Of a stretch of DNA of 64,000 nucleotides, positions 3,174 to 62,519 are shown one piece after another (position 1 is the stretch's first letter; each line of letters starts with the position of its first letter). The notes below the pieces were generated by a model. It saw only the letters and a program-made list of their open reading frames with translations. It did not search any database and was not told where the DNA came from. A program made the position numbers and the translations under genes. The DNA is from Escherichia phage vB_EcoM_G37-3, in sequence record MK327941.1, one strand, 5' to 3'.

Positions 3174-3201
3174 ATTATAGAGAATCTCCCTTGTATGTCA
3201 A
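3174..3201 (-). promoter_or_regulatory. sigma70-like early promoter (PeSL-type), TTGACA-N16-TATAAT
   Basis: -35/-10 on minus strand with GGGAGA/TCTCCC inverted repeat around -10; approximate. Confidence 0.55.
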
Positions 3202-3761
3202 CTAAAATTTAAAGATGCAAACTCCCCGTGATGAATTTTTGCATATTCATCATATGCTCTAGCGGCTTCCTCCTGAGTAGCAAACGATCCTATGTATTTT
3301 CTGTATCCGTTTATCCTTATTTGTGCTTGCCACGGTCTTTTGCTAGATCCTTTGCGATGAGTAACACCATTATATATGCTCGTGCACCCGTCCATTTTCT
3401 TTTTATTGTACATGTTTTGTTGTTGTGTTGCCTCCCGTAAATTTGGTGGATTGTTGTTTTCTGGATTCCCGTCTATGTGGTCTATTACCTTAACCTGTGT
3501 TCCATATTCAAGAAACCAGACAATTCTATGTACAAGATATGTAGATGTTCTCTTTTTAACCTTATTGTAAACATCTATTGCCAAATGACCGTAATTTAAC
3601 TTTTTTGTTTTTACTTTATCACCGACTTGGTAGAAATATCCCTCTGGTAGACCATTAAAAGACGGACTATTTGTTTTGTGATATAGAACACCTTCCGTGT
3701 GTTCAAATCTGCGTTTTAATTCCTCTTGAATTTCAGTATTCCAAAATTTCGCACTTTTCAT
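3198..3761 (-). CDS. HNH homing endonuclease with C-terminal AP2 DNA-binding domain
   Basis: HNH motif HIDGNPENNNPPNL; AP2-like YNGVTHRKGSSKRPWQAQIRINGYRKYIGSFATQEEAARAYDEYA; directly downstream of gp39. Confidence 0.8.
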   Translation of the reverse strand: MKSAKFWNTEIQEELKRRFEHTEGVLYHKTNSPSFNGLPEGYFYQVGDKVKTKKLNYGHLAIDVYNKVKKRTSTYLVHRIVWFLEYGTQVKVIDHIDGNPENNNPPNLREATQQQNMYNKKKMDGCTSIYNGVTHRKGSSKRPWQAQIRINGYRKYIGSFATQEEAARAYDEYAKIHHGEFASLNFS

Positions 3762-10189: not shown

Positions 10190-10237
10190 ATAATAAAACC
10201 ATTATAGAGTAGTGTCAATCACAAAGTGTATGTGATC

Positions 10238-10245
10238 TATAAATA
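10238..10245 (+). promoter_or_regulatory. T4-type late promoter TATAAATA
   Basis: Exact TATAAATA about 30 nt upstream of plus-strand HNH ATG at 10275. Confidence 0.6.
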
Positions 10246-10274
10246 AGTTTGTTAGACCTAAAGGAGACCACAAA

Positions 10275-11204
10275 ATGAACTATAAACGTATTTATGATAA
10301 CCTGATTGAACGTGCTAAGACTCGAACTATCGACGGATATACAGAAAAGCATCACATCATACCACGTTGTATGAATGGAAGCGATGATGATAGCAATCTA
10401 GTTAGACTCACCCCAGAGGAACATTACATTGCTCACCTTCTGTTAGTTAAGATTTATCCAGATAACAGTAAATTGGTTTATGCTGCAAATATGATGTGCG
10501 TTTCTTCTGATTCACATAATGGAGAAAGACAGTCAAATAAACGTCATGGTTGGTTGCGTAGAAAAATGGCAGAGGCACATAGTAAAAGAATCCGCGATAG
10601 AATGGAGAACGATCCTGAATATAGAGCTAAGGTTTCGGAATGGGCTAGAAAAATGGGTAAAGCTATGAAAGGAGTTAAACGAGGACCGGAATTTAGCAGA
10701 AAGTTGGCAGAAAGAAACAGAAATACCGTGATGAAAGAAGAAACTAAACGTAAAATCGGGGAAGCCAACAAAGGAAGGAAACGTACAGAAGAATATAAAA
10801 GAAAACATAGTGAGCGGTATAAGGGTGAAGGTAATCCGATGTATGGTAAACGAGGAAAGGACCATCCGGCATATGGTACTAAACCGTGGAACAACCAAAC
10901 ATCATTTGTTGAGCAGAAAGCATGGTGGCGTTTCGCTGGCATGTTCTATGACTGGTATCAGAGAGATATTGACCGTGGAACACATAAACGCCACGGCCAT
11001 AAGAGAATGTTAGACGAGTTAGGTTTTGTTGGTTGGCGAGAAAAAGAGCCAGCCGCAGCAAGACGGTCAATTGAGATGTTCGCTAAAGGCTGGAATCCTT
11101 ATGAAGACCAAGAATGGTTAGATTATGTTAATACCCGCTTTCCAAACGACGATAGTTTTCCGCGTTCTTCAACATATACAAGACAAACAGATCTTTCGCA
11201 GTAA
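10275..11204 (+). CDS. HNH homing endonuclease with NUMOD3-like repeats
   Basis: HNH motif EKHHIIPRCMNGSDDDSNLVRLTPEEHYIAH; repeats GNPMYGKRGKDHPAYG; GGAG RBS; only sizeable plus-strand gene in the region. Confidence 0.85.
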   Translation: MNYKRIYDNLIERAKTRTIDGYTEKHHIIPRCMNGSDDDSNLVRLTPEEHYIAHLLLVKIYPDNSKLVYAANMMCVSSDSHNGERQSNKRHGWLRRKMAEAHSKRIRDRMENDPEYRAKVSEWARKMGKAMKGVKRGPEFSRKLAERNRNTVMKEETKRKIGEANKGRKRTEEYKRKHSERYKGEGNPMYGKRGKDHPAYGTKPWNNQTSFVEQKAWWRFAGMFYDWYQRDIDRGTHKRHGHKRMLDELGFVGWREKEPAAARRSIEMFAKGWNPYEDQEWLDYVNTRFPNDDSFPRSSTYTRQTDLSQ

Positions 11205-11646
11205 GCCCCAACGCCAAGAATTTACACATAATGAAATGGAGTTGGTCGACGGCTTCTAGGTATGTTTCCAAACGATCCGCCTCTGATAAATCACTAAAGA
11301 GGCGGTTTCGTGCTTCCATATGATTGGCTTTCCAGTGTTTCCACACCGCGCTAGCGTCTTTCCCGTTAGACATACCACCCAACGCAGTATACAGTTCTCG
11401 TGTTTCATCGTCAAGCGCATTGTCATTAGCTCGAATAAAATCTAAAATCTCTCCACACGTTTTCAATTCGTCAATTTTTGCTACCCACGGACGGTCCTTA
11501 GACACCTGATCCTGCAACGCTTTTTGCATATTCATCATATGCTGGAACGGGTTATCGCCGTTGGCGATAATTTCTTTATATTTTTCTTCTGCAAAATTCA
11601 GAGTTTCCGCATTTACTAAGTGTGCACAAGAATTAAATTCTGACAT
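11128..11646 (-). CDS. 56: dCTP pyrophosphatase gp56 (MazG-like)
   Basis: 172 aa from ATG at 11646 (track start is GTG); size and N-terminus fit T4 gp56. Confidence 0.75.
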   Translation of the reverse strand: MSEFNSCAHLVNAETLNFAEEKYKEIIANGDNPFQHMMNMQKALQDQVSKDRPWVAKIDELKTCGEILDFIRANDNALDDETRELYTALGGMSNGKDASAVWKHWKANHMEARNRLFSDLSEADRLETYLEAVDQLHFIMCKFLALGLTAKDLFVLYMLKNAENYRRLESGY

Positions 11647-11660
11647 ATTCACCTCATTAA

Positions 11661-17169: not shown

Positions 17170-17180
17170 TATTAATACCT

Positions 17181-17369
17181 CTATTCAGTTAATCCGTAAT
17201 ACTTTAATTGCTTCATTGTTATTCGATCTTTGTAGTGCTCTTGAATTAACTTTTTCATCGCATCAACATCGATCGTCACAAATACTTCGTTGCTGTGATT
17301 TCCGTGAACTTTCTTGAAATGCTCTATGCCTTCCTCACGTTCACGTTTAATCTTTTCAATGTCTCTCAT
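17181..17369 (-). CDS. hypothetical protein (62 aa)
   Basis: Internal ATG at 17369 just downstream of an early promoter; track start is GTG. Confidence 0.4.
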   Translation of the reverse strand: MRDIEKIKREREEGIEHFKKVHGNHSNEVFVTIDVDAMKKLIQEHYKDRITMKQLKYYGLTE

Positions 17370-17413
17370 AGTATATTTCTCACGTTGGCGGGTATCGTCA
17401 CACAACACCCGCC

Positions 17414-17441
17414 ATTATACACACTTTATCTTAAATGTCAA
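17414..17441 (-). promoter_or_regulatory. sigma70-like early promoter TTGACA-N16-TATAAT
   Basis: Near-consensus -35 and -10 on minus strand in the gp43 to uvsX intergenic region; approximate. Confidence 0.6.
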
Positions 17442-20141: not shown

Positions 20142-20170
20142 ATTATAGGGGAATCGACCTAGTTTGTCAA
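20142..20170 (-). promoter_or_regulatory. sigma70-like early promoter TTGACA-N17-TATAAT upstream of gene 43
   Basis: Consensus hexamers flanked by AGGGG/CCCCT inverted repeat; approximate. Confidence 0.6.
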
Positions 20171-28001: not shown

Positions 28002-28043
28002 AGTCTCTTCCTCTCTTCGTTTTCGATGCTCTCACTATATCAC

Positions 28044-28069
28044 AGAAAAATAAAAAGGGAAACCCCTTT
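28044..28069 (-). terminator. intrinsic terminator
   Basis: Minus strand AAAGGGGTTTCCCTTT hairpin followed by TTATTTTTC. Confidence 0.5.
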
Positions 28070-28092
28070 CAGAGTCTCCCTTATAAAAGCCA

Positions 28093-28380
28093 TTACAGCA
28101 TACTTAATACCGTTTGCCGTGTACTGACCCACATAGCAGAAAGCAGTTCTGGCGTGTGTGGCTGTTTGTAGATATCACGTAATTTTCCGATAGCGTAGAT
28201 ATACGCATCACGATTATCATCGATGATAGCTTGTTCAGCCCACCGCTTAAGGCGTGCAATCTCTCGCGAGTTCTTACGCAAGATCTTTTCCGCTTTCTTA
28301 GCGGCTTTAGCCTCTAGTTCTGCTTGTACTTTGTCTACTTCATTCACTGCAATCTTGTCATGCTGTTCATCATAAGTCAT
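28093..28380 (-). CDS. hypothetical protein (95 aa)
   Basis: ORF on the common strand. Confidence 0.45.
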   Translation of the reverse strand: MTYDEQHDKIAVNEVDKVQAELEAKAAKKAEKILRKNSREIARLKRWAEQAIIDDNRDAYIYAIGKLRDIYKQPHTPELLSAMWVSTRQTVLSML

Positions 28381-28381
28381 G

Positions 28382-28615
28382 TTATTTTACCTCTGGGATA
28401 TAATCAATTATTAAAGAAAATTCATCTTCTGATACATTATAGCTATGTGAGATTGTACCCGTCAAGACCTCAAGATCCGGTGATTTGATATTGCACGGAT
28501 CGATAATCACCGGAACGCCGCAATCTCTCAAAAATAATTTGGCGAAATACGGCACGAGGTCAGTTTCAAACTCTGCTTCTTCCAGCAAACGGGAAATGTT
28601 AATTTTCAATCTCAT
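28382..28615 (-). CDS. hypothetical protein (77 aa)
   Basis: ORF overlapping the 3' end of gp55. Confidence 0.4.
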
Positions 28616-29172: not shown

Positions 29173-30642
29173 CTATTCCCCATTACCATTATACTTTCTT
29201 TGCTTAGTTATCCACACTCTAACCATCTCTACAGATTCGCCGTCAGACGGATCAAGAGTTTTTCCCTTTTTCTTCATGCGGTACTTAAATCCGTTAAATC
29301 TTGCATTCTCTTGCTCGTTAAAATCGAACATCTTTTTAAATGATTTTCGCCCTTTACGCTCACCACATTCTAGCGGAATCATTCGGTCTGTTATTACATT
29401 GGCATTAGGTAGAAACGTTTTTAGATAATCTACCAACGCCCAATCAGGAACATATAGATTAACATTCTCCTTGCTCTCGTTGTCTCTCAGGTTACAACGC
29501 AAACATAATTGAAATGCTGGTTCCAGATAATCAGACACATGACGCGCTTTCAAAAACTCATTTGTCGGGAGATCACAACTATTAGCAAGACCTTTTAAAA
29601 TATCAATCTCCCATCGTTGAGGGTTAAAGCTGAACATCACAGCAACATTTTTATGATGAATGTAAGAGTTAAGACCATAAGATCCGTAAGGTATCCGCTC
29701 ACCAATACCATTTGTACACGCTTCTCGGTCCCGATTCACGGTATAAATGAAGTCATCACCACATTCATTTTTAACCATATCAACAAGACGTTCAAAGGTA
29801 TTGTTTGTTTCTGACTGGTGACGCGACCAGCGTTCGGAGTCTGTCATAAGGATGATATTAACTCTATCTGTATTTTTATACTCTTTGAAATATAGTCTGG
29901 ATTCTAGCGCACTCGGAACAAAATCGCAATTTGCATAGTATCGTAGATACTTCCCACTATATGTATCAAAGAGATTTGCACATGCTATCGTAACCTTTTT
30001 AAAGTCTCCCCACGTACCGTGTTTGTTATCGTTCAAGAAAACAATTTTCGACCCATTCTTCCGGTGTCCTTCGTTATGTTTTACCATAACGTTGATTTTC
30101 TTCTCTAATAACGCCTCATAAAGCCCTCTAAGAGAAGAATCGATCATATCAGTACCATCCTTTGCACTTTCTATCTTTTCTTTGATAGCGGCCTTCTCAG
30201 AGTCTTTTAGAACTAAGTTCTGTAGGCATTCCGATTCGTCGGCGATTGGTTCGCAATGCTTCGTGATAAGTTCAAGATTAGACTTAAACGGATACTCATT
30301 AAATTCAACCAGTTGAGGAACTTCATCAATGTAAAGAGCATATTCACCAAACATTTTTGAACGTTCCATATTAGATAACGCTGTATGTGTAATGAATATC
30401 ACATCAGCACCGTCTTTAACTGATTGCATTATCGACGCTTGCACTGTCTTAAGGCTTCTTAGTCTTGTGCTATCAATCAAGACAGCACGACCGCCCATTC
30501 TTTTAAACTTATTGTAAGATTGTTCACTTAAAACACGAGATGGCGAAGCAATAACCGCTTTTTCTTTTGTCTCTAGGACGTGGGAAAGTATAGCATCAGT
30601 TTTCCCCGCCGCTGGCAATGCGATTAATGTTTCAATCTTCAT
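29173..30642 (-). CDS. P-loop NTPase with SF2-helicase-like N-terminal motifs, function unknown
   Basis: 489 aa; motif I LPAAGKT, Ia-like ASPSRVLSEQ, II-like YIDEVPQ; no clear motif VI; not at a T4 core position. Confidence 0.55.
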   Translation of the reverse strand: MKIETLIALPAAGKTDAILSHVLETKEKAVIASPSRVLSEQSYNKFKRMGGRAVLIDSTRLRSLKTVQASIMQSVKDGADVIFITHTALSNMERSKMFGEYALYIDEVPQLVEFNEYPFKSNLELITKHCEPIADESECLQNLVLKDSEKAAIKEKIESAKDGTDMIDSSLRGLYEALLEKKINVMVKHNEGHRKNGSKIVFLNDNKHGTWGDFKKVTIACANLFDTYSGKYLRYYANCDFVPSALESRLYFKEYKNTDRVNIILMTDSERWSRHQSETNNTFERLVDMVKNECGDDFIYTVNRDREACTNGIGERIPYGSYGLNSYIHHKNVAVMFSFNPQRWEIDILKGLANSCDLPTNEFLKARHVSDYLEPAFQLCLRCNLRDNESKENVNLYVPDWALVDYLKTFLPNANVITDRMIPLECGERKGRKSFKKMFDFNEQENARFNGFKYRMKKKGKTLDPSDGESVEMVRVWITKQRKYNGNGE

Positions 30643-41007: not shown

Positions 41008-41820
41008 TCAATCTACGTTAGTTACATAAACTTCTTGCGTATCAGAAGACTTACCACCTGAACGATCTAGGCAATAGGTCTTATTCAACAGGACGCAGTT
41101 TAAATCATTCCGCTTGATAAAGTCAAGGAGATGATCATTTACCTTTCCCTTATGATGCGTGACATTACTGATACCAAACTGAAAACCACGCGCCATAATC
41201 GATTCTACCCACTGATAGAATTTAATCTCTTCCTCGTCACTCCAGAACTTATTATATTCCGCAGAAGTGATAAGGTACGGCGGGTCCAAATAAACGAAAT
41301 CACCTGGCAAGATCTCGATCTCGTCATAGCGACCAGACGTAAAACTGATTCGACCGTCTTTGTTTTCTTCCTTAAAATTCAGGACACGCTCTACCGCGTT
41401 TTCGTTAAAAGTCCGGCGACCAAAATTAGCATTAAATTCTCCCTTCCTGTTATGGCGGTTAATGTTGCTAAAACTGTGCTGAATCAGAACAAACAGAGAT
41501 AGCGGATCTGGATTCTCATTATACTTCTTGCGGAATGCCATATAAGAATCTTTATCATCACGAGACAAACCATTCTCGGCAATAATCAGCTTGATCGTAG
41601 AAACCGGATCAGGACACTCGTCAATCGCTTTGTACGCGTCAATTAAGCGGTGATCATAGTCATTAGCCAGAACACCCCCTTCGACGTACAGAGACACGCT
41701 CAAGCCACCACAAAAGGCATCAACAAAGCGGTTATAGTGCTTAGGGAAATACTTACTAACACTTGGCAATAACTTTTCCTTATTGCCAGTATAGGGAATT
41801 AAACCTAATGCTTTCTTCAT
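41008..41820 (-). CDS. dam: DNA adenine methyltransferase Dam
   Basis: 270 aa; FCGG (motif I) and DPPY (motif IV); close match to T4 Dam. Confidence 0.9.
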   Translation of the reverse strand: MKKALGLIPYTGNKEKLLPSVSKYFPKHYNRFVDAFCGGLSVSLYVEGGVLANDYDHRLIDAYKAIDECPDPVSTIKLIIAENGLSRDDKDSYMAFRKKYNENPDPLSLFVLIQHSFSNINRHNRKGEFNANFGRRTFNENAVERVLNFKEENKDGRISFTSGRYDEIEILPGDFVYLDPPYLITSAEYNKFWSDEEEIKFYQWVESIMARGFQFGISNVTHHKGKVNDHLLDFIKRNDLNCVLLNKTYCLDRSGGKSSDTQEVYVTNVD

Positions 41821-53327: not shown

Positions 53328-53921
53328 TTAAACGTATTCAGCGACAACATTGTGTTTAAAATTACCACTTCTTTTTGGATTTGGATTTTTCAATCGACTA
53401 TGTATTAAATTTTTGTTATATCCGGTTGCTTTAGACGCTTCTCCAATACTTTGATAAACAACACCATCAACACGAATCGGACGAGACTTATTAAACAGTT
53501 TATTCAATCCGGTATCATATGCATGGTTTTGGTTTTCTTGTCTTGTTGCGATCTCAAGATTCCAAACACAATTACAAGATTTTACCCCACTTTTATGATT
53601 AATTTCAAGCCCTTCACAATCACCTATAAAGTGTTCAGCGACTAGTCTATGAATATAGCGATATTTCTTAGTTTCCCCGTCATGCAAGCATACATTATAA
53701 TAACCATCACCAGCGCGTTTAGGTCGGAGTAGTTTACCTTTAACACGTTTTATAGTAGGGAACTCACCAAATTGATTTCGCTGGATAAAAGGAATCTCTC
53801 GGTCAAGTGAACGGATTCGACCATAGTTAGATACTTGATAAAACCCCCCATAGCCCTTAATCTGCTTCCATATCTCGGGGATTTCAACACCATCAATAAC
53901 AACAAGTTTAAGTTCTTCCAT
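53328..53921 (-). CDS. HNH homing endonuclease (NUMOD4-like plus HNH_3-type)
   Basis: YQVSNYGRIRS, HRLVAEHF...NHKSG...NLEIATRQENQNH; GAGGTG RBS. Confidence 0.85.
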   Translation of the reverse strand: MEELKLVVIDGVEIPEIWKQIKGYGGFYQVSNYGRIRSLDREIPFIQRNQFGEFPTIKRVKGKLLRPKRAGDGYYNVCLHDGETKKYRYIHRLVAEHFIGDCEGLEINHKSGVKSCNCVWNLEIATRQENQNHAYDTGLNKLFNKSRPIRVDGVVYQSIGEASKATGYNKNLIHSRLKNPNPKRSGNFKHNVVAEYV

Positions 53922-61862: not shown

Positions 61863-62519
61863 TTAAATGTTCGCGAGAATCGCGCTTTCAAATTCTTCTA
61901 ATGTACCATTATTTATGATAATGGTTTCACCGTCAATAGGCAAAATTCCTTTTTCGGTGGAGTGAGTCGATACAATACCAGTATCACGATGAATATGCAA
62001 CACCTTAGCACCCATAGCACGCATGAGAGCAATTTCAATAGGCTGACGCACATCAACCACTACAAAATACCCTTCTTCATTTTTGCGCTTCATAAACTCA
62101 TTCACGAAGAGATTACACCAATAAAGCGGATTGATCAAGTTAACCATTATATCAGTACCGAGAGTGGTTAACATGAGACGAATAGACCAGACGTTATTAT
62201 GTTTTTCGCCGATCTCATTAACGACCTTGTAAATCTCAGCCAGACGATCACAAGTAAAGGAACTACCGCCATACTTCGAATCTAGCATAAGCAGACACTG
62301 AATAAACCACTTATGCGCGGTATAGGTATCAATACCTAGATCGGCTTCTCTGTCACGCCCCAACCCGTCAAAGTCAAGATAAGTCAGACCTAAGTCTGGT
62401 TGACATTCGCACAATATTTCTTTGATCGGTGCTGCCAGTTGATAACTATGTCCATCAATGATTAACGCGGCAGTGTCTTTTCCTACTCGCTTTTTACCAC
62501 AAAGTGCAATCAATTTCAT
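61863..62519 (-). CDS. 1: deoxynucleoside monophosphate kinase (gene 1)
   Basis: 218 aa; P-loop GKKRVGKDT; colinear with T4 gp1. Confidence 0.88.
   Translation of the reverse strand: MKLIALCGKKRVGKDTAALIIDGHSYQLAAPIKEILCECQPDLGLTYLDFDGLGRDREADLGIDTYTAHKWFIQCLLMLDSKYGGSSFTCDRLAEIYKVVNEIGEKHNNVWSIRLMLTTLGTDIMVNLINPLYWCNLFVNEFMKRKNEEGYFVVVDVRQPIEIALMRAMGAKVLHIHRDTGIVSTHSTEKGILPIDGETIIINNGTLEEFESAILANI

Follow-up and report, generated by a model that had tools for sequence, protein, structure and literature searches.

A compact promoter/stem-loop early cassette between uvsX and gene 43 in an RB49-like coliphage that very probably lacks the T4 glucosyl-hydroxymethylcytosine genes

In the coliphage analyzed here, the recombinase gene uvsX and the DNA polymerase gene 43 are nearly adjacent, and the reading that we hold with high confidence is that this proximity exists because the phage belongs to a lineage, Krischvirus, in which the T4 glucosyl-hydroxymethylcytosine (HMC) system is encoded nowhere in the genome, with the 261 bp between the two genes forming an early-expression cassette of the promoter-early stem-loop (PeSL) type. 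The whole stretch of DNA under study, 64 kb in length, is referred to below as the window. As the RB49-like group has long been known to be without the T4 HMC and glucosylation genes, the short gap between uvsX and the polymerase gene is real but ordinary: the absence of gene 42 and of the glucosyltransferases, the ordinary cytosine of the DNA and the PeSLs at gene 43 are already known from literature since 2002-2010.

The window aligns with RB49 in collinear blocks of 93-99% identity across the whole 64 kb, small indels aside, and is likewise collinear over its entire length with vB_EcoM_G2248, with few indels; its identity to many Krischvirus records is 96-99.5%. Over the 4.5 kb around the uvsX-43 locus its identity reaches 99.5% with vB_EcoM_G2248 and 98.4% with RB49, and the same segment also matches about 58 other Krischvirus genomes, while other parts of the window match Krischvirus records at 96-98%. 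The first gene of the window is rIIA, as in the RB49 record, and a tRNA scan of the window returned 0 tRNAs, again as in RB49. On these alignments we assign the window to the left 64 kb of a Krischvirus phage, one of the RB49-like 'pseudo-T-even' coliphages. No record in the phage collection matches it exactly. Three HNH homing endonucleases lie in aligned regions at sites where RB49 has none, and the gene 56 allele is a divergent one (57% identical to RB49 gp56) common only to this phage and JSE. We regard it as a new mosaic member of Krischvirus.

Every gene of the uvsX-43 region lies on the minus strand (Table 1). The uvsX product shows the Pfam domains T4_UVSX_C (4.7e-35) and RecA and its RB49 ortholog is annotated uvsX, and the gene 43 product carries DNA_pol_B and DNA_pol_B_exo1, in agreement with the RB49 annotation. 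The gap that separates them, 17170-17430, measures exactly 261 bp and contains a single sensible ORF of 62 codons plus stop, and its promoter has perfect sigma-70 hexamers; the first-pass annotation, which had described a gap of about 260 bp with one 62-codon ORF and a strong early promoter, is thus borne out on each of these points. Gene 43 ends at a TAA stop (17433..17431), the small ORF runs from an ATG at 17369 to a TAG (17183..17181), and the uvsX ATG follows 11 nt further on. Because the uvsX Shine-Dalgarno sequence GAGG (17181..17178) overlaps that TAG, translational coupling between the small ORF and uvsX is possible. An Rfam scan of the interval, hairpin included, gave no match. The junction is stable: a 401-bp stretch across it is present in 58 of 58 Krischvirus records of the phage collection at 96.8-100% identity, with 100% coverage and no indels, and the order uvsX, hypothetical protein, DNA polymerase recurs in every one of them. 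RB49, phi1 and JSE share the gene order 43 - RB49ORF025c - uvsX and the same annotated early promoter at 98% nucleotide identity, and as judged from these records the compact uvsX-43 junction is a fixed trait of Krischvirus.

Table 1. Features of the window that bear on the uvsX-43 interval and on cytosine modification
Feature	Position	Strand	Basis
uvsX, RecA-like recombinase, 356 aa	16099..17169	-	63% identity to T4 UvsX (tblastn, E 2e-151)
11-nt spacer and small-ORF stop codon	17170..17183	-	read directly from sequence
early ORF, RB49ORF025c homolog, 62 codons	17181..17369	-	phrog_12120, 4e-42
stem-loop GGCGGGUGUUGUG-UGA-CGAUACCCGCC	17387..17413	-	inverted repeat; 13 pairs including G-U
sigma-70 early promoter TTGACA-N16-TATAAT	17414..17441	-	12/12 consensus positions
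gene 43 DNA polymerase, 892 aa	17431..20109	-	55% identity to T4 gp43 (tblastn, E 0)
second perfect early promoter, within hairpin AUAGGGG...CCCCUAU	20142..20170	-	PeSL upstream of gene 43
gene 56 homolog (dCTPase/dUTPase family)	11128..11652	-	41% identical to T4 gp56; phrog_173, 1e-32
gene 47-gene 55 slot (T4 alpha-gt position)	28002..28598	-	ORF list, RB49 annotation, T4 map
Dam-type N6-adenine DNA methyltransferase	41008..41820	-	47% identical to T4 Dam; Pfam MethyltransfD12, 1.7e-29
gene 1 dNMP kinase homolog	61863..62519	-	Pfam DNMK, 5.3e-68; RB49 gene 1 synteny

That neither gene 42 nor beta-gt lies between uvsX and gene 43, as had been noted at first reading, holds for the window at large: tblastn with T4 gp42, alpha-gt, beta-gt, imm, imm.1 and segA produced no match there better than E = 0.2. 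The same queries found none of these genes in the complete genomes of RB49 (164,018 bp) and G2248 (170,678 bp), and it is from these relatives that we extend the absence beyond the 64-kb window. RB49, phi1 and JSE are without gene 42, alpha-gt, beta-gt and imm genome-wide, as this phage very probably is too, and all of them have kept gene 56, dam, cd, td and gene 1. A weak gp42 match in RB49 and G2248 (23% over 144 aa, E 0.006-0.008) is td and reflects paralogy within the thymidylate synthase (TS) family; at the position of the gp42 Asp, td retains the Asn of thymidylate synthases (GLPFNVASYALL), its match to Pfam Thymidylat_synt reaches 1e-84, and we read td as a true thymidylate synthase and the sole TS-family gene of the RB49 and G2248 genomes. 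The beta-gt match (25% over 130 aa, E 0.2-0.6) falls within gene 55, which encodes the late sigma factor, and is taken as chance. In T4, alpha-gt occupies a slot of its own, and the corresponding slot between genes 47 and 55 is without alpha-gt here: it gave no tblastn match to alpha-gt and holds only an a-gt.4 homolog (28093-28380) and an a-gt.5 homolog (28382-28615). A 489-aa ORF beside gene 55 (29173-30642), near the T4 alpha-gt position, is DEAD-helicase-like (phrog_2467) and not a glycosyltransferase. Within the reach of homology searches, tblastn and Pfam being blind to non-homologous modification pathways, 30 window ORFs and 10 large uncharacterized ORFs from the RB49 and G2248 genomes yielded no Pfam match to a glycosyltransferase, to a second TS-family protein or to a TET/JBP domain. 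Among window ORFs of at least 300 aa, only the DEAD-like helicase homolog (489 aa) and a goF-like protein (392 aa) are without an established T4-type function. The Pfam scans also turned up Macro-domain, RlaP, SLT and CapR-domain proteins and an Ig-repeat Hoc-like protein, and an amino-methyltransferase, RB49ORF143w (MTS and Eco57I-type domains), is encoded outside the window.

The published record on RB49-type phages is in line with these searches. Table 4 of Petrov et al. 2010 (PMC2993671) lists the RB49 type as lacking gene 42, alpha-gt, beta-gt, denB and alc, with gene 56 present; in the same survey gene 42, denB and alc occur in the T-even phages, JS98, RB69, CC31, the Acinetobacter phages and some Aeromonas phages, alpha-gt is confined to the T-evens and beta-gt to T4 and CC31. 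For the RB49 group, homologs of DenA and of dCTPase-dUTPase are the only ones reported, and known enzymes for non-canonical bases are stated to be lacking (PMC8056088); of alc, denB and denA, the RB49 annotation lists only the last. RB49 has been described as "missing hydroxymethylase and beta-glucosyltransferase" (Yaung et al. 2014, PMC4041780), and its DNA is cut by HpaII and NheI (PMC4041780), which shows that it contains neither hmC nor glucosyl-hmC. RB49 can also package C-DNA, as seen in its transduction of plasmids (PMC8056088), and the Krischvirus TB34 was found to have canonical cytosine by HPLC/MS in a 2026 study (PMC13390438). In contrast to the glucosyl-HMC of T4, the DNA of the relatives RB49 and TB34 is thus ordinary cytosine DNA. 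The suggestion in the first-pass annotation that the modification scheme may differ from the T4 type is accordingly supported from several sides, namely the RB49 and G2248 genomes, the identity of td, the survey of Petrov et al., the RB49 digests and the TB34 HPLC/MS data. RB49 even serves as an "unmodified T4-like" control phage. For the phage described here, the same state of the DNA would mean sensitivity to type I-III restriction and to CRISPR and insensitivity to type IV systems (McrBC, GmrSD/BrxU), and transduction is to be expected, a consideration for any therapeutic use of the phage.

The gp56-type dCTPase and the Dam methyltransferase that had been recognized at first reading are both present as homologs (Table 1), and homologs of gp56, Dam and gp1 are common to this phage and T4. 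The family matched by the gene 56 product, phrog_173, is that of NTP pyrophosphohydrolases, and its Pfam dUTPase_2 match stays below the cut-off. Counting against cytosine-containing DNA, a retained gp56-type dCTPase does not obviously fit such a genome. Among the sequenced T4 relatives, however, only four giant phages lack gene 56, and genes 56 and 1 rank among the quasi-core genes of auxiliary metabolism (Petrov 2010, PMC2993671), so that with so wide a distribution neither can be taken as a marker of HMC. The most likely task of gene 56, shared with cd, td, frd and gene 1, is to remove dUTP and supply dTMP, not to replace cytosine. The Dam homolog is the only recognizable DNA-modifying enzyme in the window, and we expect the phage DNA to contain ordinary cytosine, with Dam-type GATC adenine methylation as the only modification that can be predicted from the window.

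A recent report complicates the otherwise uniform picture of the genus. The Krischvirus SAP, 99.96% identical to TB34 and 97.5% identical to the window across the uvsX-43 interval, is sensitive to the type IV enzyme BrxU (2026, PMC13390438), and its DNA was found to have fully modified cytosines, about one-third 5-hmdC and about two-thirds alpha-gentiobiosyl-mdC, with neither a hydroxymethylase or glucosyltransferase gene nor an informative SNP relative to TB34 found to explain it (PMC13390438). Read at face value, modified SAP beside its plain-cytosine sister TB34, without explanatory genes, could mean that the present phage hypermodifies its cytosines by a pathway unrelated to gp42 and the T-even glucosyltransferases, with gp56 excluding dCTP as it does in T4; the retention of gp56 and dNMP kinase homologs and the many window ORFs without assigned function would fit such a scheme. 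We consider it very improbable. SAP shares its modification profile with seven Tequatrovirus phages of the collection it belongs to (PMC13390438), which is what a mixed or mislabelled stock would give, and we suspect that the SAP result reflects a preparation of this kind. In addition, both RB49 and TB34 were measured as unmodified, RB49 packages C-DNA in transduction, the scanned ORFs of the window, RB49 and G2248 match no glycosyltransferase or hydroxymethylase family, and the helicase-like and goF-like proteins are the only window proteins of at least 300 aa that are without an established T4-type function. The broader proposition, that some Krischvirus phages, possibly including this one, replace cytosine with hmC or gentiobiosyl-hmC through enzymes unrelated to gp42 and to the known DNA glucosyltransferases, has in our estimate a very slim chance of being correct. 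If it were, gp56 and the gp1 kinase would be part of the pathway and one or more ORFs of unknown function would encode a new hydroxymethylase and a new glycosyltransferase; it is only through the report of a modified Krischvirus that the absence described here would gain real importance, and only then would the retention of gp56 matter.

The promoter of the interval consists of TTGACA at 17441..17436, a 16-nt spacer and TATAAT at 17419..17414 on the minus strand, with the -35 box embedded in the final codons of gene 43, and its RB49 counterpart is annotated as 'hypothetical early promoter'. The window has eight perfect TTGACA-N16-18-TATAAT sites, every one of them on the minus strand, where chance alone would give 0.09. 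The stem-loop starts directly after the -10 box, and the 81-nt hairpin region folds at -25.4 kcal/mol (z = -4.4); since no T-run follows, the hairpin is not a classical intrinsic terminator. Several further minus-strand consensus promoters of the window share the promoter/stem-loop design, while a search across the window for extended copies of the PeSL in this interval found none, only the hexamers recurring. PeSLs, of which each RB49 or phi1 genome has about 50, pair an early sigma-70 promoter of near-perfect TTGACA-N16/17-TATAAT sequence with a G-run/C-run stem-loop next to it (Arbiol et al. 2010, PMC2839356). They usually sit just upstream of small ORFs of unknown function, one published subclass has its stem-loop 'downstream of the -10', and gene 43 is flanked on both sides by PeSLs in RB49 and phi1 (PMC2839356). 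Both flanking elements are present in this phage, one in the uvsX-43 gap and the other at 20170..20142. Like the PeSLs described by Arbiol, Comeau, Krisch et al. 2010 and Comeau 2014, the element in the gap is intergenic, joins promoter and stem-loop and lies upstream of a small ORF; with a promoter, an adjacent GC-rich stem-loop and a small ORF downstream, the interval can be classed as a PeSL on its sequence.

The stem-loop of a PeSL acts as a terminator or attenuator of upstream transcription, and the whole unit may be a recombination module, with promoter and attenuator activity demonstrated for PeSLs other than that at uvsX-43 (PMC2839356). In the present case, the early transcript would start about 7 nt past the -10 box, near 17407, and would carry the 62-codon ORF followed by uvsX. 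Of the 13 nt in the 5' arm of the hairpin, such a transcript would lack the leading 6 (17413..17408), and the full hairpin would form only in transcripts that read through from gene 43. As the hairpin would be complete only in this read-through RNA, it probably attenuates these transcripts or stabilizes their 3' ends. We therefore propose that the 261 bp could function as a compact early expression cassette, whose anatomy is directly visible and whose activities are deduced from it. Whereas the PeSLs of the literature populate hyperplastic regions, the one at uvsX-43 resides in the conserved replication core, and the invariance of the locus across 58 genomes gives no sign of PeSL shuffling at this position.

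The protein encoded downstream of the promoter matches phrog_12120, a family of unknown function, over 62 of its 62 positions (4e-42). It is 98-100% identical at the amino acid level in RB49, phi1 and JSE and at least 95% identical, with no frameshift, in 58 Krischvirus records, and in a database of 5.8 billion proteins its close relatives are restricted to Krischvirus. Exhaustive HMMER and profile searches nonetheless uncover about 58 clusters of 48-77-aa homologs at 40-60% identity; in an alignment of 39 sequences R11, F18, H22, G23, V29 and R49 are invariant, and the family is marked by the motif FKxxHGNHS(H/N)EV. The three homolog contexts examined are solitary ORFs located on the opposite strand between the terminase, portal and MuF genes of phage contigs, the homologs lying within the packaging modules of phages of about 45-48 kb. 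In the Jedunavirus IME346 a DUF2800/PD-(D/E)XK nuclease begins with this module, which makes up its first 52 residues (50% identity over 50 aa). Because its homologs stand alone on a strand of their own in packaging modules and in one instance are fused to a nuclease, the gene behaves like a mobile accessory gene of the 'moron' type. A role of the protein as a partner of UvsX or of a nuclease was considered and found no support, the neighbors of its homologs being packaging modules and not recombination genes. AlphaFold2 (AF2) modeling predicts three helices at a pLDDT of 82, and structural comparison of the model found no counterpart in the PDB and, in BFVD, nothing but the protein itself. 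Automatic callers choose GTG starts that give 73-75 aa, but both the alignment and the predicted transcript start favor the ATG start and a length of 62 aa.

We take the 62-codon ORF to be a real gene on the strength of this conservation. Were it not a gene, the interval would be only a regulatory spacer, promoter plus hairpin, for uvsX, a view that we judge very unlikely. The ORF is short, a Pfam scan of its product gave no match and its Shine-Dalgarno sequence is weak (GAG, 10 nt 5' of the ATG), and Slopekvirus and Pseudotevenvirus manage with gaps of 74-80 bp that contain no ORF. Against a mere spacer, however, stand the diverged homologs with their six invariant residues, called as genes in unrelated phage contigs, the in-frame use of the family module as the N-terminus of the Jedunavirus nuclease, the full-length match to a PHROG of its own and a reading frame that is kept without frameshift in 58 genomes.

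Comparison with T4 and with other genera places the junction in a wider context. The T4 map confirms that the uvsX-43 interval there carries beta-gt, gene 42 and imm, as had been stated at first reading, and adds segA and imm.1: the T4 interval spans about 3.6 kb, and none of these five genes is found in the 261 bp here. The flanks are homologous and in the same order in the two phages, with 41, 40 and uvsX on one side and 43, regA, 62, 44 and 45 on the other. That gene 42 and the glucosyltransferase genes have been relocated relative to T4 and lie outside the window, which the first-pass annotation had left open and which draws only on the roughly 100 kb of this mosaic genome beyond the window, is extremely improbable and finds no support, since a check of the complete RB49 and G2248 genomes for gene 42, alpha-gt and beta-gt found none, published surveys of RB49, phi1, JSE, SAP, TB34 and the whole RB49 group likewise find none, and alc and denB, whose products act against C-containing DNA and which share the distribution of gene 42, are reported absent from the RB49 group.

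The length of the junction differs widely among related genera. In the Slopekvirus PMBT1 the gap measures 74 bp and in the Pseudotevenvirus vB_EcRAM-01 80 bp, and in both it has a hairpin followed by a T-run, a classical terminator, with no ORF and no consensus promoter; in the Gaprivervirus VR26 the gap extends to 1.2 kb and carries imm and two small ORFs, with no gene 42 there. Given this variation among genera, from 74 bp to 3.6 kb, we infer that the junction is a variable insertion point between two core genes, of which the five-gene content of T4 represents one extreme and the RB49 state lies near the minimal end. In PMBT1, vB_EcRAM-01 and VR26 alike, as in the phage described here, a GC-rich hairpin stands behind the gene 43 stop codon, with uvsX directly or almost directly downstream.

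The gene 56 allele of the window, which encodes a gp56-type dCTPase/dUTPase, is divergent, sharing just 57% amino acid identity with RB49 gp56, and its 3' end is overlapped by a convergent HNH/NUMOD3 homing endonuclease ORF. The cassette that holds both genes (10219-11652) has no counterpart in RB49 or G2248, and among 58 Krischvirus records we found it in JSE only, at 93.8% nucleotide identity. The arrangement parallels that of T4, where the segF homing endonuclease likewise adjoins gene 56. Two further free-standing HNH homing endonuclease genes are present in the window, each within a stretch that shows no alignment to RB49 or G2248.

Coordinates of the features discussed (L004 and L006, RB49 sequences)
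Feature	Location	Strand	Remarks
HNH homing endonuclease, HNH_3 + AP2	window 3198-3761	-	free-standing; adjoins gene 39
HNH/NUMOD3 homing endonuclease ORF	window 10275-11204	+	phrog_655, 1e-78
62-aa ORF	window 17181-17369	-	
489-aa ORF, RB49ORF044c homolog	window 29173-30642	-	between gene 55 and 55.2
HNH homing endonuclease, NUMOD4 + HNH_3 + I-TevI-type DNA-binding domain	window 53328-53921	-	free-standing; adjoins nrdC.11
Methyltransferase RB49ORF143w = G2248_00142	L004 35903-36742 (RB49)		outside window; among baseplate genes
Krischvirus thymidylate synthase (td)	L006 10870-12102 (RB49); G2248 143627-144847		outside window

Beyond the Dam gene of the window, the genomes of RB49 and G2248 carry a second methyltransferase, RB49ORF143w, with Pfam matches to MTS, Methyltransf_25 and Eco57I-type families. 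The RB49 group has been credited with a 'DNA-cytosine methyltransferase' (PMC8056088), and RB49ORF143w, whose substrate may be DNA or RNA, may be the enzyme so ascribed. As for Dam itself, the window contains 367 GATC sites vs approximately 226 expected from base composition (GC content, 40.1%), and the Dam site is therefore not avoided. No tRNA genes were found across the whole window, and the same holds for RB49.

The Krischvirus thymidylate synthase is 406-410 residues long because an insertion of approximately 130 residues lies in the middle of the fold; the Pfam matches fall into two separate stretches, and the Asn motif at the catalytic site is preserved.

Members of the 62-aa ORF family share the motif FKxxHGNHSHEV and have six invariant residues, and this His-rich motif might bind a metal. 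Relatives of the ORF (L015-L019) occur as a solitary opposite-strand ORF within the packaging modules of enterobacterial phage contigs of approximately 45-48 kb, and in Jedunavirus IME346 a DUF2800/PD-(D/E)XK nuclease has a member of the family as its N-terminal 52 residues (L007, the IME346 sequence, 2468-2623). The 489-aa ORF, which matches phrog_2467 and whose homolog carries no functional assignment in the RB49 annotation, gives a weak N-terminal match to DEAD/DEAH helicases (Pfam, 3e-06).
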